A DNA stretch of 60,411 nucleotides, counting the filler. It is 5 parts of 5 records of this genome, joined end to end, with 100 filler letters (N's around TTAATTAATTAA, not from the genome) between each part and the next. Parts side by side here need not be neighbours in the genome. Positions count along the whole stretch, not along the records: positions 40,241 to 49,436 come from DRR723986_1775; 4 more parts are not named here. The stretch is one strand, 5' to 3'. Numbering within the stretch: the first letter of the stretch is position 1; the number at the start of each line of letters is the position of its first letter. This document shows positions 7,277 to 49,536 of this stretch, in pieces. The notes beneath the pieces were generated by a model that had not been told where the DNA came from, ran no database searches, and saw only the letters and a list, made by a program, of their open reading frames with translations. A program made the position numbers and the translations under genes.

Positions 7277-7376
7277 NNNNNNNNNNNNNNNNNNNNNNNN
7301 NNNNNNNNNNNNNNNNNNNNTTAATTAATTAANNNNNNNNNNNNNNNNNNNNNNNNNNNNNNNNNNNNNNNNNNNN
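7277..7376. other. Artificial contig spacer
   Basis: N44-TTAATTAATTAA-N44; stop codons in all frames. Confidence 0.98.
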
Positions 7377-13156: not shown

Positions 13157-13256
13157 NNNNNNNNNNNNNNNNNNNNNNNNNNNNNNNNNNNNNNNNNNNN
13201 TTAATTAATTAANNNNNNNNNNNNNNNNNNNNNNNNNNNNNNNNNNNNNNNNNNNN
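13157..13256. other. Artificial contig spacer
   Basis: N44-TTAATTAATTAA-N44. Confidence 0.98.
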
Positions 13257-40140: not shown

Positions 40141-40240
40141 NNNNNNNNNNNNNNNNNNNNNNNNNNNNNNNNNNNNNNNNNNNNTTAATTAATTAANNNN
40201 NNNNNNNNNNNNNNNNNNNNNNNNNNNNNNNNNNNNNNNN
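40141..40240. other. Artificial contig spacer
   Basis: N44-TTAATTAATTAA-N44. Confidence 0.98.
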
Positions 40241-41858
40241 GGGCAAGCAGATGGCGATCGATGCGGATCTGTCCGCAGGCCTCATCGACGAAGCCGAAGC
40301 CAAGTCTCGCCGCAAGGCTCTCGAGGACGAAAGCGCCTTCTTCGGGGCCATGGACGGTGCGTCCAAATTCGTACGCGGCGACGCCATTGCCGGCCTTCTG
40401 ATCACCTTCATCAACATTCTCGGCGGCATCTTCATCGGTGTTGCACAGATGGAGCTGACCTTTACCGAGGCCGCCAACAACTACACGCTGCTGACCATCG
40501 GCGATGGCCTTGTCTCCCAGATTCCGGCACTGATCGTTTCCACGGCAGCCGGCCTTCTTGTTTCCAAGGCAGGTGTGCATGGGGCTGCCGACAAGGCGCT
40601 GACCAGCCAGTTCACCGGCTATCCGAAGGCACTCGGCATGTCGGCCGCGGTTATGGTGATCCTGGCGCTGCTTCCGGGCATGCCCATGGTCCCGTTCTTC
40701 GGTCTTGCAGGTCTTGCCGGTTACCTGGCCTTTTCCGTCGGGTCGAAGAAGAAGAAGGCCGCGGCAAAGGCCGAGATGGTCAAGGCCGTGGAAGCTGCGC
40801 CGAAGCCGCCGCCAGAGCCGCCGATTACCGATGCCCTGAAGATGGACGAACTGCGGATCGAGCTCGGCTATGCCCTGTTGCCGCTGATCAATGGCAAGGC
40901 AACGGGCGACAACGATGTTCTGACCGAGCAGATCAAGGCATTGCGCCGCCAGATCGCGGGCGACATGGGCGTGATAATGCCGCCGGTGCGCATCCTCGAC
41001 AACATTCAGCTTGGCGCGAACGATTACGTCATCAAGGTGAAGGAAGTCGAAGCCGGCCGCGGCGTGCTTTACCCGAACCACTTCATGGTCATGGATCCCG
41101 CAGGTGGGCAGGTCAAGCTGCCGGGCACGCACACCACGGAACCGACGTTCGGCTTGCCGGCAACCTGGGTGGAGGCCCAGTACCGCGAGGATGCTTCCCT
41201 GCGCGGCTACACCGTGGTGGATCCGGCAACCGTTCTGTCCACGCATCTGACCGAGACGATCAAGGCCAACATCAGTGAACTCCTGACCTATGGCGACGTG
41301 CAGAAGCTGCTCAAGGAGCTGAAGGGCGAGCAGGCCAAGCTGGTCGAGGACCTGATCCCGTCGCAGATCACCGTGTCCGGTGTCCAGCGTGTGCTGCAAA
41401 CCCTCCTGGGCGAGCGGATTTCGGTTCGCGATCTCGGAACCATTCTGGAAGGGGTGTCCGAAGCAACCGGCATGACCCGCAACACGGACACCATTGCCGA
41501 GCACGTGCGCACCCGTCTTGGCAGGCAGATCTGCGCCGCCAATCTGGCGCCCGGCGGCTATCTGCCGCTCATCGCGCTGTCGCCGCAATGGGAGCAGGCT
41601 TTCCTGGAATCCATCATCGGCGAGGGTGATGACCGCCAGCTAGCAATGCAACCCAGCAAGCTGCAGGAATTCGTCGGCAGGGTCCGCGATGCGTTTGAGC
41701 AGGCTGCGCAGCAGGGCGAGGTTCCCGTGTTGCTGACATCCCCGCAGACCAGGCCGTTCGTTCGCTCCATCGTCGAGCGTTTCCGCGCCCATACGACGAT
41801 CATGAGCCAGGCGGAAGTTCACCCGCGGATCAAGCTCAAGACAATCGGTTCGATCTGA
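40241..41858 (+). CDS. flhA: Flagellar export apparatus protein FlhA (partial, 5' end missing)
   Basis: GKQMAIDADL, FFGAMDGASKFVRGDAIAG, IGDGLVSQIP and EPTFGLPA.W motifs. Confidence 0.96.
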
Positions 41859-41870
41859 GGCGGGGCAATC

Positions 41871-41910
41871 ATCAGCGCGTTCAACAAAGCTCTGTTGAAC
41901 GCCCGCTGAT
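41871..41910. terminator. Hairpin between convergent flhA and the small paralogue
   Basis: ATCAGC-GCGTTCAACA-aagctc-TGTTGAACGC-cc-GCTGAT. Confidence 0.55.
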
Positions 41911-41925
41911 GTCATGCCCGTTGTG

Positions 41926-42201
41926 CTAGACGACCACGTTAATCCTGGCCATGGCGGCGGTCTGACTGGCGTATGTGCCCAGCCGGCCCTGGTTCTGCAG
42001 GACAAACAGCGAATTGGCCTGAGAGGCCTGCGTGTTGATCGATTGCATCACGTAAGCGAGGTTGTTCAGCTGGTCGATACGCTTTGCGGCTGTCTGGCGC
42101 CGCTTTGTCCAGGCCTTGTTGTAGTCGGCCAGGGACACCTTGCGACTGGAGCTGAAACGTTTGGAATAATCTCGTTGGAAGTAGTTGCCGACCTTAGCCA
42201 T
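41926..42201 (-). CDS. Hypothetical 91-aa basic Q/N-rich protein, copy 1
   Basis: AAAAGG SD; 60/91 identical without gaps to the adjacent copy 2, with many synonymous codon differences. Confidence 0.85.
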   Translation of the reverse strand: MAKVGNYFQRDYSKRFSSSRKVSLADYNKAWTKRRQTAAKRIDQLNNLAYVMQSINTQASQANSLFVLQNQGRLGTYASQTAAMARINVVV

Positions 42202-42247
42202 GCGATTGCCTTTTCAAAAGACTGAAACAGCATAGCTCCCGAAGGAA

Positions 42248-42262
42248 TGAACAAGCTCTTAA
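42248..42262 (-). promoter_or_regulatory. CtrA-like box (one mismatch) upstream of copy 1
   Basis: - strand TTAA-GAGCTTG-TTCA; same spacer and position as the box of copy 2. Confidence 0.6.
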
Positions 42263-42350
42263 CGCGCGTTTCTGCAGAAAACGCTACGTAACTTTTTTCG
42301 AGAAAATATCATCTTCCCGGGCCTTTGCCCGGCGGTTTATCCGGGAAAAT

Positions 42351-42626
42351 CTAGACGAGCACGTTGATGCGGGCCATCGCGGCGGTCTGGTTCGCATAAC
42401 CACCCAGCCGGCCTTGGTTCTGCATGACAAACAACGTGTTCGTCTGAGCTGCCTGCGTATTGATGGTCGCGAAGGTGGATGCCAGGTTCCGAAGCTGCTG
42501 CATTTTCTGCGACGATGCCTGACGGCGCCCGTTCCAGGCCTTGTTGTAGTCAGACCAAGTCGACTTCCGCTTCGTGCTGAAAGTTTTGTGGTAGTCCCGC
42601 TGGACGTAGTTTCCGACCTTTGCCAT
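42351..42626 (-). CDS. Hypothetical 91-aa basic Q/N-rich protein, copy 2
   Basis: AAGGAG SD; paralogue of 41926-42201. Confidence 0.85.
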   Translation of the reverse strand: MAKVGNYVQRDYHKTFSTKRKSTWSDYNKAWNGRRQASSQKMQQLRNLASTFATINTQAAQTNTLFVMQNQGRLGGYANQTAAMARINVLV

Positions 42627-42670
42627 GGCAGCTCCTTCCTGGAGATCTGAACAGACTGTGTGCGAAGATG

Positions 42671-42686
42671 GTTAACAAGCCCTTAA
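42671..42686 (-). promoter_or_regulatory. Consensus CtrA box
   Basis: - strand TTAA-GGGCTTG-TTAAC, an exact TTAA-N7-TTAAC match. Confidence 0.75.
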
Positions 42687-42770
42687 ATCAGCGCAATGTG
42701 CACAGGGCGGCTTGGCGACAAGCGTTCCAGCTGTTAAGCCCGGAAAAACACGCGAGATTCTGGAGTTTTC

Positions 42771-43382
42771 ATGTCGACGCAAGCGCTTAACCTCGATGGC
42801 TACACGGATATTCCGGAGGGCAAGGTTGCCTTCGTGGTCACGTTCCTGGAAATGCTTCAGGCGCCTGAGCAGCCTCTTGCGCCATCACGCAGCGACGTGA
42901 CATTGCAGCGGTGGCAGACGCCGGATCTCGACAGCTATCGCAAGCTTTTCCGGGAGGTTGGTGAAGACTGGATCTGGTTCGGCCGGCTGGTTCATGACGA
43001 CAAGACGCTGGAACAGTTGCTCGCCGAGCCTGCCCGCGAGAACTACCTGCCGATCATCGATGGCAAGCCGGTCGGTACGCTGGAGCTGGATTTTGCCAAC
43101 CCGGAAGAGCCCGAACTTTCCTATTTCGGCCTGGTCCCCGGTGCGATCGGTGGCGGGCTCGGCCGCTGGCTGATGGCCCAGGCGCTGGACATCGTCTGGT
43201 CACGCCCGGAAACGAAACGGCTCTGGGTGCATACCTGCACCGGCGACAGCCCGCAGGCGCTGATCTTTTACCAGACCTGCGGTTTCAAACCCTACAAGCG
43301 CGCTATCGAAGTTGCCGAAGACCCGCGTCTGCAAGGACTTCTCGGCCGCAAGCGCGCCCCGCATGTGCCCGTGATCGAGTGA
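42771..43382 (+). CDS. GNAT family N-acetyltransferase
   Basis: YFGLVP..IG.GLG and WVHTCT.D.P.AL.FY...GF motifs. Confidence 0.88.
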   Translation: MSTQALNLDGYTDIPEGKVAFVVTFLEMLQAPEQPLAPSRSDVTLQRWQTPDLDSYRKLFREVGEDWIWFGRLVHDDKTLEQLLAEPARENYLPIIDGKPVGTLELDFANPEEPELSYFGLVPGAIGGGLGRWLMAQALDIVWSRPETKRLWVHTCTGDSPQALIFYQTCGFKPYKRAIEVAEDPRLQGLLGRKRAPHVPVIE

Positions 43383-43440
43383 GGACGCACTTCAGCGCGA
43401 TCTCGAAGGAATGGGGCTGCCCGCTCGCAAGCACACCCGT

Positions 43441-44547
43441 CTAGGCACTTGCCCGAACCCGCTCCGGAAAGGCATCTGCAATGGCCTTGCGGTTTGCCTC
43501 CAGCACGCCGCGCTCGGTGATGAGGCCGGTCACGAGACGGGCAGGGGTGACGTCAAAGGCCGGATTTCCGACAGGAGATCCGTCCGCAACGATGTCCACC
43601 GTTTCGATCTCGCCTGTGCTGGTGCGGCCGGTGATGCGGCTGACTTCTTCGCCGCCGCGTTCCTCGATCGGGATCTGCCGGATACCGTCCGACAGGGAAA
43701 AGTCGATGGTCGGTGACGGCAGCGCGACGTAGAAGGGCACACTGTTGTCCTTTGCAGCCAGTGCCTTCAGATAAGTACCGATCTTGTTGCAGACATCACC
43801 GGTGGCCGTGGTGCGGTCCGTTCCGGTGATCACGATATCGACCTCGCCATGCTGCATCAGGTGTCCGCCGGCATTGTCGACAATCACGGTGTGCGGGACA
43901 CCATGCTGACCGAGCTCCCAGGCGGTCAGAAAAGCCCCCTGATTGCGCGGTCGGGTTTCATCGACCCAGACATGAACAGGAATGCCGCCGTCATGGGACA
44001 TGTAGATTGGTGCTGTCGCGGTGCCCCAGTCGACGGTGGCCAGCCAGCCGGCATTGCAATGGGTGAGGATGTTGACCGGCTCACCGGCGCGTTTCAGCCG
44101 CGAGATCGCGGCAATCAGCTCCATCCCGTGCATGCCGATGGCCATGTTGATGGCGATGTCCTCGTCGCAGATGTCATTGGCCAGCTTGAAGGCGGCTTCC
44201 TCGCGGATTTCAGGTGCCAGCCGGACCAGTGTCCGACGCGCCTTGTCGAGGGCCCATTGCAGGTTGACCGCTGTCGGCCGGGTTTCCAGCAGGGACGAGC
44301 AGGCAGCATGGAGATTGTCGTCTGAGGCGTCGGTCCGCATGGCCAGCGCGACGCCGTAGGCGGCTGTTGCTCCAATCAAAGGCGCGCCGCGCACCTGCAT
44401 GAACCGGATCGCATGGGCGGCGTCTTCCATTGTATGCAGTCGGATGGTCTCGAACGTGTGCGGAAATCTGGTCTGATCGATGATCTCGACCGAGCCGCCA
44501 TCTTCCGCCAGCCAGATCGTGCGATATTTCTTGCCGTCCACGTTCAT
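43441..44547 (-). CDS. mtnA: Methylthioribose-1-phosphate isomerase
   Basis: [36 protein letters not shown] and NPAFDVTP motifs; start MNVDGK. Confidence 0.93.
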
Positions 44548-44641
44548 GAGCGAAACTCCGCAATCGCAATATGTTTTTTGCATAACCCATGAACAGGCTT
44601 CAGGCCAGTCGCGCGTTACTGGCGTGACTGTCAAAAATACC

Positions 44642-44766
44642 TTAATCTCCGTTAACCATGTTTGGATCATTGCCAGTGGATAGCTCGCAGGTGGAGGCCA
44701 TGCGGCTGTTTCACTCGGGATAGAGTCAGTTAAGACTTGATTCACCAACGGCAGTACAACGGAGTC
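44642..44766 (+). promoter_or_regulatory. Cell-cycle-type regulatory region (CtrA-like sites plus GANTC cluster)
   Basis: TTAA-N6-TTAACCAT (44642-44659), TTAA-N7-TTCAC (44730-44745), GANTC at 44723, 44739 and 44762. Confidence 0.5.
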
Positions 44767-44777
44767 ACGTGTACCCC

Positions 44778-45359
44778 ATGTCTGAAATGCAGGATAACGT
44801 TGTCCCACATACGCGCATGCGGTCCTTGCGCGATGCGATCCGGAAGGTTCAGCTTGGCGAAGTCGAACGGTCGGACGTGGTTGTTGAGCTCCAGGAGACC
44901 GAGCGTGCCCGGCTGGACATGCTTGCAGACGAACTCAAGGACGTTTTCAGGGAAATCCCGGAAGACGACGACCAGTTTTCCCTTCAGATCATATCCGGTT
45001 CCACGCCACGGCTCTGGATCGATGCGACCAGCCACGTCGCCGTTGGCGGTGACAGGCGCACCTATCGGTTCCTGAAGGACACGCGCCTCGGCCGGGTGGT
45101 CATTCTGGAAACGGCCAACATCGATGACATGGCAGACTGCCTGACCGAATATATTGCCGAACGCGTTCTGGAGCGGGAAAAGGCGCTGGAAGGCGACTGG
45201 CTCAACAACCGGCTGCGGCAGGTCGCGCTCGACAGCAAGGTCGTGCGTGTCAAGGAAAGCCGTACGCCCTGGATGGCGGTCGCTGGTGCCTTCGGGATCG
45301 GTCTTGCGGCGGGCGTCATCGGCCTCATCGTCTTTGCCTGGTTCGCCAACCCGCTCTAA
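44778..45359 (+). CDS. Conserved hypothetical protein with C-terminal membrane anchor
   Basis: [18 protein letters not shown] and YRFL.DTR.GR blocks; single C-terminal TM; GGAG SD. Confidence 0.8.
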
Positions 45360-45463
45360 GGCGGTTTTTGTGAACGACGTCCAACACTCTCCAGTCTCGG
45401 TCCTGGTTACCGCAAACCTGTGAGTGCCTTTCTGGGCAACTCGTCAGGCCTGCAGGAAGGGCC

Positions 45464-46402
45464 TCAGGGCTTGCTGCCCGGAATGGCGACTTCTCGTTCC
45501 GCGAGCAGCTTCACCGGCTCGTCTGGCGCGGCAAAGCCATGCTCTTCCATTTGGCAGGACCAGCCCTCGTTTGTCTTTTCGATCCGGAACAGGTTGTAGC
45601 GCGCCGCCGGTTTCTTGCCACCAGGTGCGCTTGTGGCAGATGGCACACCAACCACCGGGACGAGCCCGTCCGGTCCCTCGATATGCTCGAAACTGTCGAC
45701 ATGGGTGTGGCCATGCAAGATGAGCTCGGCACCGGCTCTCTTGACGACGGCGCGCACCCTGGAGGCGTCCGACAGGCGCTTGTGCCAACGGGTGGCATGG
45801 GGGAACGGCGGGTGATGCAGCATCACCACGCGGAAGAAACCCTCCCGGCCAAGGTCGTCGAGAATTGCCCGCAGACGCTTGCTCTGCTTGCTGCCGACAC
45901 GGCCCGTAGCGAACCAGGGGCCGCTGGCACGACCGGTCGTCACGCCGACAAGTGCGATACCGTCCCGCTTGCGCACATAGGGAAAGGTTGCTTCCGAGTT
46001 GGTGCCGTTTGACGGCACATTGCCTGCGCCATCGCCGCGCATGTACGGCCACCATGCCGCACGAGCCCTGCGCACGGCTCCAGGCACATAGGCGTCGTGG
46101 TTGCCCGGAACGACGGAGACATCCTCCGGCGGGCCGATATCTTCAAGCCAGGTTCGCGCACCGGAAATTTCCAGGGGCAGCGCGATATTCACCAGGTCGC
46201 CGGTGACGGCAATATGGTCGGGCGCCTGCGCCTGCATGTCATCGACGAGTTGTTCGAGATAACTGCCGCCCATGATCCTCGACCGGTTGCGGCGCCAGTT
46301 GAGGTAACCAAGGATCCGCTTGGAAAAAAGCTGCAGCAGCTTGGGGTCCGGAAGCGGGCCGAGATGGGGGTCGGAAAGATGGGCGAGCGTGAATGTGGAC
46401 AT
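45464..46402 (-). CDS. Metallophosphoesterase (calcineurin-like)
   Basis: SDPH, TGDLVN, PGNHD, HHPP and HGHTH motifs. Confidence 0.92.
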   Translation of the reverse strand: MSTFTLAHLSDPHLGPLPDPKLLQLFSKRILGYLNWRRNRSRIMGGSYLEQLVDDMQAQAPDHIAVTGDLVNIALPLEISGARTWLEDIGPPEDVSVVPGNHDAYVPGAVRRARAAWWPYMRGDGAGNVPSNGTNSEATFPYVRKRDGIALVGVTTGRASGPWFATGRVGSKQSKRLRAILDDLGREGFFRVVMLHHPPFPHATRWHKRLSDASRVRAVVKRAGAELILHGHTHVDSFEHIEGPDGLVPVVGVPSATSAPGGKKPAARYNLFRIEKTNEGWSCQMEEHGFAAPDEPVKLLAEREVAIPGSKP

Positions 46403-46416
46403 GGTCGCGCATCTTC

Positions 46417-46460
46417 AAAACGAAAAGCGCCGCGTCAAGGGGAAATGACGCGGCGCTTTC
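46417..46460 (-). terminator. Strong intrinsic terminator closing the two-sORF cassette
   Basis: 14-bp stem AAAGCGCCGCGTCA/TGACGCGGCGCTTT; on the - strand the loop is TTTCCCCT and the tail is T-rich. Confidence 0.8.
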
Positions 46461-46490
46461 AAGTGAGTTCAGGAACTGCCGGGAAACCGG

Positions 46491-46604
46491 TTACTTGACC
46501 GGTTTGACTGCCTTTGCGGCTTTCGGCGCTTTCTCGGTGTTATTGTCTGCGGAGCGCGTGGTTTCGCGCAGCGTCGCGCCAACAACATTCACGAATCCGA
46601 ACAT
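46491..46604 (-). CDS. Unannotated small protein B (37 aa)
   Basis: MFGFVNVVGATLRETTRSADNNTEKAPKAAKAVKPVK*; GGAGAAG SD just upstream of ATG; below the ORF-track cutoff. Confidence 0.65.
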   Translation of the reverse strand: MFGFVNVVGATLRETTRSADNNTEKAPKAAKAVKPVK

Positions 46605-46637
46605 GGGTCTTCTCCGTACAGGTTCCTTCGACCGACC

Positions 46638-46757
46638 TTAGTTGGTCGGGAAAGTGGTCAGGGTTGCGACGATGCGCGGGTTGGTCAGGTCGATAGCCGG
46701 CTTCCACTGGTAATTGTTGCGGTTGCGGCGGCGTTTTCCAAACAGAGCGTTCAACAT
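46638..46757 (-). CDS. Unannotated small protein A (39 aa)
   Basis: MLNALFGKRRRNRNNYQWKPAIDLTNPRIVATLTTFPTN*; AAGGA plus A-rich spacer before ATG; GC3-biased codons. Confidence 0.7.
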   Translation of the reverse strand: MLNALFGKRRRNRNNYQWKPAIDLTNPRIVATLTTFPTN

Positions 46758-46819
46758 TTTATTTTTCCTTCAGGTTCGGGCGGTCAGAAGGGCTGCCCTC
46801 GAATTCATCAACTTGCCCG

Positions 46820-46886
46820 ATATATATGCATGCGGTGCATAAAGGAGGAGCGTTATTCTCACGGGTCAGCCCTGCGGGGATTGCAT
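46820..46886 (-). promoter_or_regulatory. LysR-type operator/promoter of the sORF cassette
   Basis: Palindrome TATGCA-N5-TGCATA (46825-46841, contains T-N11-A) abutting CATATAT, plus upstream ATGC-N7-GCAG on the - strand (46872-46886). Confidence 0.55.
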
Positions 46887-46934
46887 GGGTTAAAAAAGTT
46901 TTATTTCCCCTCTGGATCCGGTAACGTCCTGAAA

Positions 46935-47420
46935 ATGTTGAAGATATTATCAGTTTTGCCGAAGTCGGTGACCACACGCCTGATCCAGGGAATTGGACTT
47001 GTCCGAAACCCGTTCACGCTTGGGGTGCGCGTGATCGTGGAAGACCGGGACAGCCGGGTCCTTCTGGTGCGGCACAGTTATGTCACGGGCTGGTATCTGC
47101 CGGGTGGGGGCGTGGACAAGGGCGAGACGATGGAAGAGGCTGCCTGCCGGGAGGTTCTGGAAGAAGCAGGTGTCGTCTCGGTCAGCCGCCCGCAGCTACT
47201 CAATATCTTCCTGAACCAGGAAGCGACAGGCCGGGATCATGTCGGCCTGTATCACATGCCCGAGTGGAGACAGGCGGACACCTTCCTTCAGCCCAATGCG
47301 GAAATCGAGGAAGCGGCATTCTTTGAGTTGGAGGCTTTGCCGGAGGGGCTTACGCGGTCCACAGCCCGGCGGCTTGACGAGTTTCGCTCCGGCCGCGAAC
47401 CGGAAAGCGGCAAGTGGTGA
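46935..47420 (+). CDS. NUDIX hydrolase
   Basis: Nudix box GGGVDKGETMEEAACREVLEEAG. Confidence 0.9.
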   Translation: MLKILSVLPKSVTTRLIQGIGLVRNPFTLGVRVIVEDRDSRVLLVRHSYVTGWYLPGGGVDKGETMEEAACREVLEEAGVVSVSRPQLLNIFLNQEATGRDHVGLYHMPEWRQADTFLQPNAEIEEAAFFELEALPEGLTRSTARRLDEFRSGREPESGKW

Positions 47421-47497
47421 GGCTTGCCGCCCCAAGGTCTGTCATGTCGTCTTCCGAGGTAAGCCGGAGCCGGCTCACCTGGAAATTTCAAACCTGA

Positions 47498-48472
47498 TCA
47501 GGCAGCAGCCTTGAAACGCTCACGGTCGTGAGGGCGGGTGAAATCCAGCGCTGGCCCGACAGGGACAATCCTGGTTGGATTCACACTCTCATGTGAGCCG
47601 TAGTAGTGCTGCTTGATCGTTGTCATATCGACCGTGTCTGCAACACCCGGGACCTGATAAAGCTCCCGCAGGTAGTTCGACAGGTTCGGATAGTCGTCGA
47701 TCCTGCGGATATTGCATTTGAAATGCCCGACATAAACCGCGTCGAAGCGCACCAGCGTCGTGAACAGTCGCCAGTCGGCTTCCGTCAGCTGGTCTCCGAC
47801 CAGATAGCGCTGACGGGACAGGCGATCTTCCAGCTCGTCCAGTGCCTTGAACAGTTCCGTGACGGCTTCTTCATAGGCTTCCTGTGTGGTCGCGAAACCG
47901 GACTTGTAAACACCGTTGTTGACGGCGTGATAGACGCGCTCGTTGATACTGTCGATTTCGGTGCGCAAGGCAGTCGGATAGAAATCAAGGTGTGAGCCGG
48001 TCAGGTCGTCGAACGCCGAGTTGAACATCCGGATGATCTCGGAGGACTCGTTGCTCACGATCGTGTTCTGGTGCTTGTCCCAGAGGATCGGCACGGTCGC
48101 ACGGCCGCTGTAGTGGGGGTCGGCCTTGGTGTAGACGTGCCAGGCGTATTTCGCGCCGGTCAGCGGATCTATCTCCGGAAACTCCCAGCCGTTCTCCAGC
48201 ATGAGCGGCTCTACGGCGGAGACGGAAATCAGGTCTTCCAGTTTCTTGAGCTTTCGGAATACCAGCGTGCGATGCGCCCAGGGGCAGGCATAGGAAACGA
48301 ACAGATGATAGCGATCCGCTTCAGCCTTGAAGCCGCCGTTGCCCGTGGGGCCGGCAGTCCCGTCCGCCGTGATCCAGTTCCGAAATGCCGCGTCCTTGCG
48401 GACGAAGCGTCCACCGGTGGATTTCGTGTCGTACCATTTGTCTTTCCAGACGCCGTCGACCAGCAGTCCCAT
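47498..48472 (-). CDS. Glutathionyl-hydroquinone reductase (YqjG-like GST)
   Basis: SYACPWAHR, TVPILWD, NESSEI, NNGVY and RFD.VY motifs; start MGLLVDG. Confidence 0.92.
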   Translation of the reverse strand: MGLLVDGVWKDKWYDTKSTGGRFVRKDAAFRNWITADGTAGPTGNGGFKAEADRYHLFVSYACPWAHRTLVFRKLKKLEDLISVSAVEPLMLENGWEFPEIDPLTGAKYAWHVYTKADPHYSGRATVPILWDKHQNTIVSNESSEIIRMFNSAFDDLTGSHLDFYPTALRTEIDSINERVYHAVNNGVYKSGFATTQEAYEEAVTELFKALDELEDRLSRQRYLVGDQLTEADWRLFTTLVRFDAVYVGHFKCNIRRIDDYPNLSNYLRELYQVPGVADTVDMTTIKQHYYGSHESVNPTRIVPVGPALDFTRPHDRERFKAAA

Positions 48473-48689
48473 GATGCGCTCCCTTGTTGTGCTTCGTCTG
48501 GTTAGGTTGTGCACACAGGCGGAAAATCAATCAATTGAATGCTCTGTTCCGGCTCGGTGAACAATCAGCGGACCGTTGAGAAGGGACAAAAAAGGCTGGA
48601 CCGAAGCAGCCATTGCGTGGTAACCGCTTCTCCTCTTTCTGGAAATATCGGCTTTCGAACACGCTGATATCGCAACGAGACTGGGATAA

Positions 48690-48761
48690 ATGACCGCAGG
48701 TCTTACGCTTCGACGACGAACCAGCCGACGAGATAACTCTCGTCCGCACCGTCGCGGCTGA
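48690..48761 (+). CDS. Putative Arg-rich leader peptide (23 aa) / structured 5' leader
   Basis: MTAGLTLRRRTSRRDNSRPHRRG*; 8 Arg, 5 of them CGA; GGGA upstream; nested hairpins. Confidence 0.55.
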   Translation: MTAGLTLRRRTSRRDNSRPHRRG

Positions 48762-48848
48762 CCTGATCCTGGATCTTCCTTACGTTTTATCCAGGCACTG
48801 GCAGGCGCGCATTTCTCCAAAGACTGCATGCTTGCTGGAACCAGCCAA

Positions 48849-49361
48849 ATGAAACAGACCACATGGGTCATCCGGCCCGAAGACGCGACCGACACTTCCG
48901 CAATTGACGATCTGCAGGCCGAAGCTTTCGGCCCAGGCCGGTTCGCACGAACCGCTTTCCGGATCCGCGAAGGCGTCCCGCACCGTCCGGATGTCTCTTT
49001 CGTCGGCCTTGCGGGTGAGCAGGTGGCAGGGTCAATCAGACTGACACCGATCAGGATTGGCGAGAGTGACGCCCTGCTACTCGGTCCATTGACCGTATCT
49101 CCCGACTTCAAGAACCGGGGTCTCGGCAAGGCGCTTATGCGTACGGCGATGGAAGCGGCGGCTGCGGCCGGAGACAAGGTCGTGCTGCTGGTCGGCGATG
49201 CGCCTTACTACAGCCCCTTCGGCTTTCAGCAGGTTCCGTTCGGACGCATTACGTTGCCCGGGCCCGTCGACCCGGCGCGGCTCCTCGTCGCGCTGTTGAA
49301 TGATGGCGACATTCCGAGCGGAATGGTGCACGGCGGAGCCTCTGCTGCGGTCGCTTCCTGA
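48849..49361 (+). CDS. GNAT family N-acetyltransferase (YhbS-like)
   Basis: FGPGRF..TA.R.RE, LLLGPL.V.P..K.RG.G and LVGD..YY..FGF motifs; alternative start at 48828. Confidence 0.88.
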   Translation: MKQTTWVIRPEDATDTSAIDDLQAEAFGPGRFARTAFRIREGVPHRPDVSFVGLAGEQVAGSIRLTPIRIGESDALLLGPLTVSPDFKNRGLGKALMRTAMEAAAAAGDKVVLLVGDAPYYSPFGFQQVPFGRITLPGPVDPARLLVALLNDGDIPSGMVHGGASAAVAS

Positions 49362-49404
49362 GGTTGTTTCTGCGTGACGCGGGGCGGGTTAACTGTGGGT
49401 GTGG

Positions 49405-49436
49405 CCCATCCTTCGAGACAGGCCTTCGGCCTTCCT
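49405..49436. repeat. Start of an alphaproteobacterial REP-like palindromic element at the contig end
   Basis: CCCATCCTTCGAGACAGGCCTTCGGCCTTCCT, truncated by the contig break, which is typical of repeat-caused assembly ends. Confidence 0.55.
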
Positions 49437-49536
49437 NNNNNNNNNNNNNNNNNNNNNNNNNNNNNNNNNNNNNNNNNNNNTTAATTAATTAANNNNNNNN
49501 NNNNNNNNNNNNNNNNNNNNNNNNNNNNNNNNNNNN
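49437..49536. other. Artificial contig spacer
   Basis: N44-TTAATTAATTAA-N44. Confidence 0.98.

Follow-up and report, generated by a model that had tools for sequence, protein, structure and literature searches.

A short open reading frame (ORF) upstream of a GNAT-family acetyltransferase gene in Roseibium and related bacteria carries a run of the arginine codon CGA at a fixed position, and its frame and CGA codons are kept across bacterial families. We describe it from a stretch of DNA of 60,411 nucleotides (nt; hereafter, the window), in which the leader ORF lies at 48690..48761 on the plus strand, comprises 23 codons plus a TGA stop and encodes MTAGLTLRRRTSRRDNSRPHRRG. The GNAT gene (48849..49361, plus strand; 170 amino acids) follows it and is the proposed regulated gene. 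Because the frame and the CGA codons are kept across families while Rfam is empty there, sequence comparison lends good support to an undescribed, codon-specific leader element. With regard to its function, we propose that the leader is a translated cis-regulatory ORF in which ribosome dwell at tandem CGA codons would control access to the GNAT start, a reading to which we give about even chances.

A conserved leader frame with frozen CGA codons

An earlier note on this DNA had drawn attention to the ORF at 48690-48761 on account of its first five arginine codons all being CGA, which sequence and translation confirm. Three of these form codons 8-10 (48711..48719, plus strand) and two form codons 13-14 (48726..48731, plus strand), the latter lying in the 5′ arm of an apical stem, where they pair with TCTCGTC. 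The remaining three of the eight leader arginine codons are CGT, CGT and CGC. CGA is the rarest CGN codon here. It accounts for 8/351 arginine codons (2.3%) in the coding sequences (CDSs) of 31 GNAT orthologues and for 102/1151 (8.9%) in a crude set of 32 long ORFs from the window, the latter value being an upper bound because the set may hold spurious frames. The note had remarked that neighbouring genes use mostly CGC, CGG and CGT. The long ORFs contain no CGA-CGA pair, and at their CGA frequency the probability of at least five CGA among eight arginine codons is 2.4e-4. A pattern search across the window returned the leader site as its only match. In these bacteria, CGA is expected to be read only via inosine-adenine wobble by tRNA-Arg(ICG), a mode of decoding known to be slow in Escherichia coli.

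A genome scan with the window GNAT as query yielded 32 loci, of which 30 came from genomes and metagenome-assembled genomes named Roseibium, Labrenzia or Stappia (GNAT protein identity 75-98%), one from Pleomorphomonas and one from Methylobacterium. The window and the 30 Roseibium-clade loci make up a set of 31 sequences, to which the following comparisons refer. All 31 have an uninterrupted leader frame of exactly 23 codons, both CGA runs are invariant, and all eight arginine codons are nucleotide-identical throughout. Frame, codon identity and codon position are thus conserved, as are the hairpins described below. None of the 72 leader columns is gapped and 49 are invariant; the spacer to the GNAT start has gaps in 21 of 95 columns. 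Mean pairwise nucleotide identity amounts to 90.4% in the leader versus 75.3% in the GNAT CDS.

Synonymous positions were compared on a tree built from aligned GNAT codons, on which the four-fold degenerate sites of GNAT (n = 41) had undergone a mean of 9.46 parsimony changes (minimum 3; 0/41 unchanged), from which 75.7 changes would be expected at the third positions of the eight leader arginine codons, as against none observed. Likewise, none of the eight invariant-arginine columns of the GNAT CDS retains a single codon. Within the leader, the third bases of CGA codons 8 (A54) and 10 (A60) never vary though unpaired in the consensus structure, while leucine codons 5 and 7 have seen three and four changes, respectively, all of them synonymous.

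The leader core recurs in other families

Searching a plasmid collection by tblastn with the GNAT protein returned orthologues at 46-49% identity, several of the records being megabase replicons. Four of the matched Rhizobiaceae records were compared; two further Sinorhizobium matches stand outside the count. In total, the taxonomic range of the leader rests on 41 GNAT-homologue loci, and the leader is present upstream of 36 of them. Its signature, expressed as a sequence pattern, is ATG-N18-CGACGACG upstream of GNAT orthologues, and CGA-CGA-CG(A/C) is found at codon 8 also in loci L031, L033, L034, L035 and L037.

The Rhizobiaceae leaders are ten-codon ORFs ending in CGA CGA CGC TGA and encode MILSGSLRRR in Sinorhizobium (two records), MFISRNPRRR in Rhizobium (R. 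leguminosarum) and MFYTGTPRRR in Shinella. They share the form M-x6-RRR-stop, with the arginine run starting at codon 8, codons 2-7 diverged and a 16-nt core, CGACGACGCTGATGCT, invariant. In Pleomorphomonas (L031), the leader encodes MPMHPGAGLRRRREDCGVRPHPSRARRG, contains CGA CGA CGA CGC and has a Roseibium-like end (...CGC GGC TGA CC). Its arginine run starts at codon 8 when counted from the second in-frame ATG and at codon 10 when counted from the first, and its hairpin has the architecture of Roseibium hairpin H1 (see below) with a different interior. The ATG-to-CGA distance is therefore 21 nt in five genera (from the second ATG in Pleomorphomonas), with the intervening sequence diverged. 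That the ATG, the 21-nt distance, the tandem CGA and the stop outlast changes in sequence and fold fits a translated, codon-reading element rather than a pure RNA motif. The conservation of frame and CGA run on which the earlier note’s proposal hinged is found in 31/31 Roseibium-clade sequences and recurs in three Rhizobiaceae genera and in Pleomorphomonas.

In each of the three genera, single-sequence folds of the Rhizobiaceae form pair leader codons 3-7 with sequence immediately preceding the GNAT ATG (GGGAAGCC/GGUUCUC, CAGAAACC/GGUUUCUG and GGGAACC/GGUUCCC); the pairs show compensatory differences, three sequences being few. The leader stop invariably overlaps an ATG (TGATG), which is in frame with GNAT in Rhizobium and Shinella and which in Sinorhizobium opens a 22-codon frame ending in ATGA on the GNAT start. 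On R. leguminosarum pSK03 (L034), the annotated N-acetyltransferase CDS (1438-2001) begins at the ATG overlapping the leader stop, 63 nt upstream of the start aligned across genera, and the true GNAT start in this locus is uncertain. A blastn search of the leader against plasmids gave two matches only, of 25-35 nt and at chance level (E = 0.6).

Two ways of fusing leader and GNAT into one product were rejected. Read-through of the UGA was considered for the window, where both are in frame and no stop other than TGA intervenes; only 17/31 sequences share this frame, and it is open in only 7/31. A frameshift at CGA-CGA would require frames that do not fit in Sinorhizobium and Roseibium.

Hairpins of the Roseibium leader

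RNAalifold analysis of the 31 sequences returned three hairpins on the plus strand. H1 (48698..48764) is long and imperfect; its 5′ arm contains the CGA run, and the base of its 3′ arm takes in the stop codon. H2 (48768..48795; CCTGGAT/ATCCAGG) has a G-poor loop of variable length, and H3 (48798..48838), also obtained in the single fold, pairs a core GGCAGGCG (48800-48807) with TGCTTGCT (48829-48836) and adjoins the ribosome-binding region of GNAT. The window sequence folds at -60.1 kcal/mol between 48680 and 48860 (z = -3.36; 0/200 shuffles equally stable) and at -29.3 kcal/mol between 48690 and 48770 (z = -2.97; 2/200 shuffles equally stable). Despite many insertions and deletions in the H2 and H3 loops, the distance from leader ATG to GNAT ATG stays within 153-159 nt in 31/31 sequences; in the Roseibium form, 87 nt separate the leader stop from the GNAT start, without overlap.

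The three helices of H1 are 97-99.6% paired across the alignment, and 98.2% of pair cells are standard, as compared to 33-49% after shifting the 3′ partners by 1-3 columns. Changes on both sides are seen in only 2/35 pairs. H1 shows C-to-U changes opposite G on this strand only; in H2, one pair is CG in 26 and UA in four sequences and two pairs alternate between GC and GU, as do 5/8 pairs in H3. Such alternation through one-strand changes points to RNA-level pairing on the plus strand.

Every stem named in the earlier note is present where it had been placed, and its CCTGGAT/ATCCAGG hairpin, here H2, is kept in the 31 sequences. Its picture of competing hairpins holds for one stem: CAGCCG/CGGCTG does compete, its 5′ half being unconserved (codon 12 is AGC in 17/31 sequences), whereas GACGAGA/TCTCGTC, CGACG/CGTCG and CAGGTC/GACCTG are all nested segments of the single H1 and hence not competitors.

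A further hairpin, H0 (ATATCGGC ... GCTGATAT; 48645..48670, plus strand), appears in single-sequence folds immediately ahead of the region where the leader ORF starts, and its position is kept with differing stem sequences in most of the 31 folds. Covarying stems upstream of the ORF argue that the transcript would start 5′ of it. H0 was also considered as an intrinsic terminator and rejected, a U run following it in few species only. No plus-strand terminator-like site was found in 48300-49450, and U runs follow neither H2 nor H3. Between H0 and the leader ATG, the purine-rich ACGAGACTGGGA (48675..48686, plus strand) is kept in the alignment and represents a weak Shine-Dalgarno candidate. Its duplex energy with the anti-Shine-Dalgarno motif is -3.4 kcal/mol versus -2.7 ± 2.5 at random positions, and it is not counted as evidence because the match is no better than random.

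The earlier note had also proposed a comparison to Rfam, in which no family matched: the best hit in 48300-49000 was unrelated (E = 1.5), none reached the gathering score in six loci, and the Sinorhizobium leader had no match at E ≤ 5.

Gene neighbourhood and upstream blocks

The leader ORF sits in a divergent gap of ~375 nt, flanked by a glutathione S-transferase (GST)-family gene on the minus strand (47498-48472), with a NUDIX gene beyond it, and by GNAT on the plus strand. The assignment of the downstream gene to the GNAT family, already made in the earlier note, rests on Pfam matches to Acetyltransf_1 (36.5 bits; cutoff 20.7), Acetyltransf_7 and Acetyltransf_9, all above cutoff; no NCBIfam model reached its cutoff with this protein. 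Orthologues share its start: ATG 48849 is kept among relatives in the 31-sequence alignment and ATG 48828 is not common to them, with GGAAC (48837-48841) as a weak Shine-Dalgarno candidate. A comparison to PDB sequences gave four matches in all, including 4zbg (E = 5.8e-9) and, weakly, 4rs2 (E = 3.5e-5), presumably E. coli YhbS; the description of the enzyme as YhbS-like in the earlier note has this weak match behind it. The idea that GNAT is a short N-acetylglutamate synthase was dropped, no such chain being among these four. A GNAT beside odc2 in S. meliloti was looked for but not found, and this lead was likewise dropped.

Annotation of R. leguminosarum pSK03 gives the order NUDIX, GST (minus), N-acetyltransferase (plus), hypothetical protein (minus), as in the NUDIX/GST(-)/GNAT(+) arrangement of the window. 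In relatives, a convergent ORF of ~691 amino acids without a Pfam or NCBIfam match lies downstream of GNAT; in the window it is truncated by the contig end. The window is a chain of contigs, the one with the leader ORF spanning 40241-49436, and the linkers (7277-7376, 13157-13256, 40141-40240 and 49437-49536) each consist of 44 N, TTAATTAATTAA and 44 N, where TTAATTAATTAA has stops in all frames and resembles an artificial contig join.

Other loci differ in their surroundings. In S. meliloti Ak57 (L037; CP090106.1, a record labelled pSymB and 3.7 Mb long), GNAT (2501-2999) appears disrupted: the frame from the shared ATG is open for 45 codons only, the tblastn match falls into two pieces and no CDS is annotated. 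In two Methylobacterium loci (L032, 2491-2501, and L036), a GNAT of 53-55% identity lies 10 nt past the stop of a YejB permease gene and is followed by a convergent ORF of ~693 amino acids. The YejB gene encodes a microcin C-type ABC permease (NCBIfam 523 bits; cutoff 445), and its adjacency is a possible, weak hint at imported peptides or peptide-nucleotides. In M. aquaticum (L040, pMaq22A_1p), a GNAT homologue of 43% identity (1501-1968) is situated ~200 nt downstream of a same-strand ornithine/arginine/diaminopimelate decarboxylase gene (70-1293; Pfam PF02784 and PF00278), which hints weakly at a link to ornithine, arginine or polyamine metabolism.

Two strongly conserved non-coding blocks stand out upstream of the leader in the 31-sequence alignment. 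The first (48521..48568) contains the inverted repeats TCAAT-N2-ATTGA and TGTTC-N9-GAACA, is kept even in loci with different far-upstream sequence and represents a putative operator or promoter. The second (48590..48635, plus strand) reads AAAAA..GCTGGACC..TTGCGTGGTAACCGCTT and may mark a promoter or the leader transcript’s 5′ end; a minus-strand terminator-like match within it is not kept as a hairpin in relatives. Together, the two may form an operator serving both GST and GNAT, which lie divergently. The four Rhizobiaceae sequences have a related block, GAACAGTGCGT, that does not vary among them. A scan for sigma-70 promoters found no site in the leader region, and a sigma-54-like promoter around TGGCAG/CTGGAC was set aside, its spacing being judged wrong by eye only.

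Comparison with known leaders

The nearest system to the CGA leader is the orf34/speFL leader of speF in Salmonella and E. coli. In those parts of the published accounts drawn on here, it likewise consists of a short leader ORF with consecutive rare arginine codons, pausing reshapes the folding of the leader mRNA, and a hairpin takes in the 3′ end of the ORF (PMC6386406; bioRxiv 10.1101/604074). The same parts describe features that set it apart, namely its occurrence in Gammaproteobacteria, a length of 34 codons, a conserved ornithine-sensing arrest domain, arginine codons AGG-CGG at positions 12-13, a mechanism involving Rho-dependent termination and RNase G, and an ornithine decarboxylase as the downstream gene (PMC6386406; bioRxiv 10.1101/604074). 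The CGA leader, in contrast, has a CGA-specific run at codon 8, a peptide that is otherwise unconserved, and a GNAT gene downstream.

Attenuators such as trpL, hisL and leuL have a leader ORF, embedded in hairpins, in which codons for a single amino acid follow one another. The CGA leader resembles them in its codon run (RRR in codons 8-10, RR in codons 13-14; RRR from codon 8 in the other genera), but no intrinsic terminator was found between leader ORF and GNAT, no clear antiterminator/terminator pair is seen, and GNAT is not recognised as a gene of arginine biosynthesis. In leaders of the ermC/cat/toiL type, a ribosome held on the leader ORF melts a hairpin that masks the start of the next gene, and the stall of ermC and cat depends on drug plus nascent peptide. 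The Rhizobiaceae form would fit this scheme in that a leader segment is predicted to pair with the GNAT start region in 3/3 genera; no masking of the GNAT start by a leader arm is predicted for the Roseibium form. The candidate stall site in the CGA leader is a codon run, unlike in this type, where excerpts on toiL-type stalling again describe drug plus nascent peptide (PMC12121999).

In yeast, ribosomes stall at tandem CGA codons decoded through an inosine anticodon, and, in the portion of the source consulted, codon-pair inhibition is presented as demonstrated in yeast, in contrast with bacteria (PMC7829197). That phenomenon is eukaryotic and tied to quality control rather than to gene-specific regulation. 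In S. meliloti, stop-start overlaps of the ATGA type couple upstream ORFs (uORFs) to main ORFs, according to the section of the report used here (PMC13285730). The Rhizobiaceae leaders with their TGATG, and Sinorhizobium with an ATGA in addition, resemble this arrangement, whereas the Roseibium form has no overlap. Control by leader peptides is well known as such; for an arginine-codon leader whose rare codon is frozen and keeps its position across families, and for this leader element itself, we found no description in the literature searched.

Proposed mechanism and rival explanations

The conserved leader core opens with a start codon, which six codons of poor conservation separate from the arginine run CGA-CGA-CG(A/C) beginning at codon 8. 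We infer that the leader is translated, that ribosomes pause on it, and what the signal and the direction of control may be. A ribosome dwelling on the CGA run would keep open the large hairpin that bears the run in its 5′ arm, and the likeliest input would be the supply of charged tRNA-Arg(ICG), i.e., arginine status. In the Rhizobiaceae form, the hairpin would have as its partner arm the sequence immediately ahead of the GNAT start. A ribosome pausing while codons 8-9 occupy its decoding sites would sit over the leader 5′ arm and release the GNAT start, and one that terminates could also re-initiate. Given this partner arm and the TGATG overlap, translation of, or pausing on, the leader would make the GNAT start accessible or supply it with ribosomes. 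The hairpin of the Roseibium and Pleomorphomonas form closes within the ORF, its base containing the stop, and two further hairpins precede the GNAT start; in this form, the link to GNAT would presumably be a refolding of the 3′ arm once it is freed.

Several observations weigh against this reading. The Shine-Dalgarno match ahead of the leader is weak, 33% of random positions being equally good. Within the Roseibium clade, leader changes are ~52 non-synonymous versus 13 synonymous, are spread over the three codon positions (19/29/27) and cluster in the H1 loops (codons 5-7, 12, 15-16 and 19-20). Because substitutions fall in loops and are spread over codon positions, RNA structure alone appears, from this alignment, to account for much of the within-Roseibium pattern. 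Signs of coding are also present there, in the purely synonymous changes of leucine codons 5 and 7, the unpaired yet invariant ATG and the likewise unpaired, invariant A54 and A60. Ribosome-masked folding of the 31 sequences left H3 and the accessibility of the GNAT start unchanged, and the ribosome-dependent switch envisaged in the earlier note is not borne out for Roseibium in this respect. A pairing of the H1 3′ arm with the H3 5′ arm was seen in masked RNAalifold predictions and was absent from partition-function folds; this sole alternative found averages 4.4 kcal/mol worse than H3 (range 0, in 4/31 sequences, to 11.9). The leader is missing at 5/41 homologue loci, namely two of Methylobacterium and those of M. 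aquaticum, Paracoccus and Pseudorhodobacter. An exact look-up of ten leader peptides in a collection of 15 billion proteins found 0/10 present, a homology search not having been made, and the Sinorhizobium leader string had no match in one supplementary file each of PMC13285730 and PMC10117765, for which other supplements may exist. Lastly, according to the part of the Salmonella study drawn on here, swapping rare for frequent arginine codons in orf34 left arginine regulation unchanged (PMC6386406).

The same device might respond to another input. The CGA run would then be a general sensor of elongation stress, as caused by ribosome-targeting antibiotics or poisons of aminoacyl-tRNA synthetases, and GNAT would be a stalling-induced detoxifying or resistance acetyltransferase in the manner of ermC- and toiL-type leaders. 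We consider this rather unlikely: the GNAT orthologue does lie 10 nt past the microcin C-type permease gene in two Methylobacterium genomes, weak matches link GNAT to puromycin N-acetyltransferase (PDB 7k09, E = 0.002) and to AAC(3)-XI (E = 0.007), and excerpts of a recent study describe uORFs that sense several antibiotic classes (PMC12121999), but those family matches are far under cut-offs, a gene neighbourhood in one genus is thin evidence, and an invariant codon run for one amino acid is more typical of an amino-acid-specific sensor. Alternatively, the leader could be a structured cis-regulatory RNA, that is, a protein- or ligand-binding leader or an RNase target, whose bases are invariant for folding or recognition and whose frame is incidental. 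Every variable Roseibium site does fall in a loop or in a pairing kept by wobble, recognised RNAs typically have invariant bases in bulges and internal loops, the Shine-Dalgarno match is weak, and both arms would read arginine simply since CGACG pairs with CGTCG. Yet the Rhizobiaceae form retains ATG-N18-CGACGACGC and the stop while folding differently, the 21-nt spacing persists in all five genera despite the diverged interval, and the leader ATG is invariant in an unpaired stretch; with no Rfam match and thin covariation support (double changes in 2/35 pairs), an incidental frame is, in our view, distinctly unlikely.

Two further explanations place the function in the peptide. If the leader were a ligand-sensing arrest peptide of the SpeFL/TnaC type, the nascent arginine-rich chain rather than the codons would stall the ribosome in response to a metabolite. 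Some Roseibium replacements are indeed conservative (T/S, A/S, D/E), and Roseibium and Pleomorphomonas have a ...RPH..RRG-stop tail in common. Beyond RRR, however, there is no peptide conservation between families, the Rhizobiaceae peptide has ten residues only, positions 12, 15, 16, 19 and 20 vary freely, and a peptide sensor would not require frozen synonymous sites in arginine codons, making this quite improbable. We deem it more improbable still that the leader encodes a small basic peptide acting in trans, like the S. meliloti leader peptide peTrpL: the ORF is conserved and, in the portion of the source drawn on, trans-acting leader peptides exist in this order (PMC10117765), yet the sequence diverges strongly between families, its position is fixed relative to one gene, and the frozen codon choice would be left unexplained.

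Implications

Ribosome dwell at tandem CGA as the control of GNAT, our preferred reading, invites a more far-reaching version, which we put forward as unlikely but conceivable: inosine-adenine wobble itself may serve as a bacterial regulatory sensor. The tandem CGA at codons 8-9, present in at least three Hyphomicrobiales families, would report the decoding capacity of tRNA-Arg(ICG), through its charging or its inosine modification, and would induce a GNAT that counters any agent reducing this capacity, such as an arginine analogue or a poison of aminoacylation entering through a YejB-type importer. If true, the CGA-CGA inhibitory pair would here have its first gene-specific regulatory use outside yeast, and Alphaproteobacteria their first arginine-codon leader. 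The leader would offer a natural bacterial system for asking whether slow inosine-adenine wobble decoding serves as a signal, and would provide a first functional clue to an uncharacterised acetyltransferase of marine and plant-associated Hyphomicrobiales.

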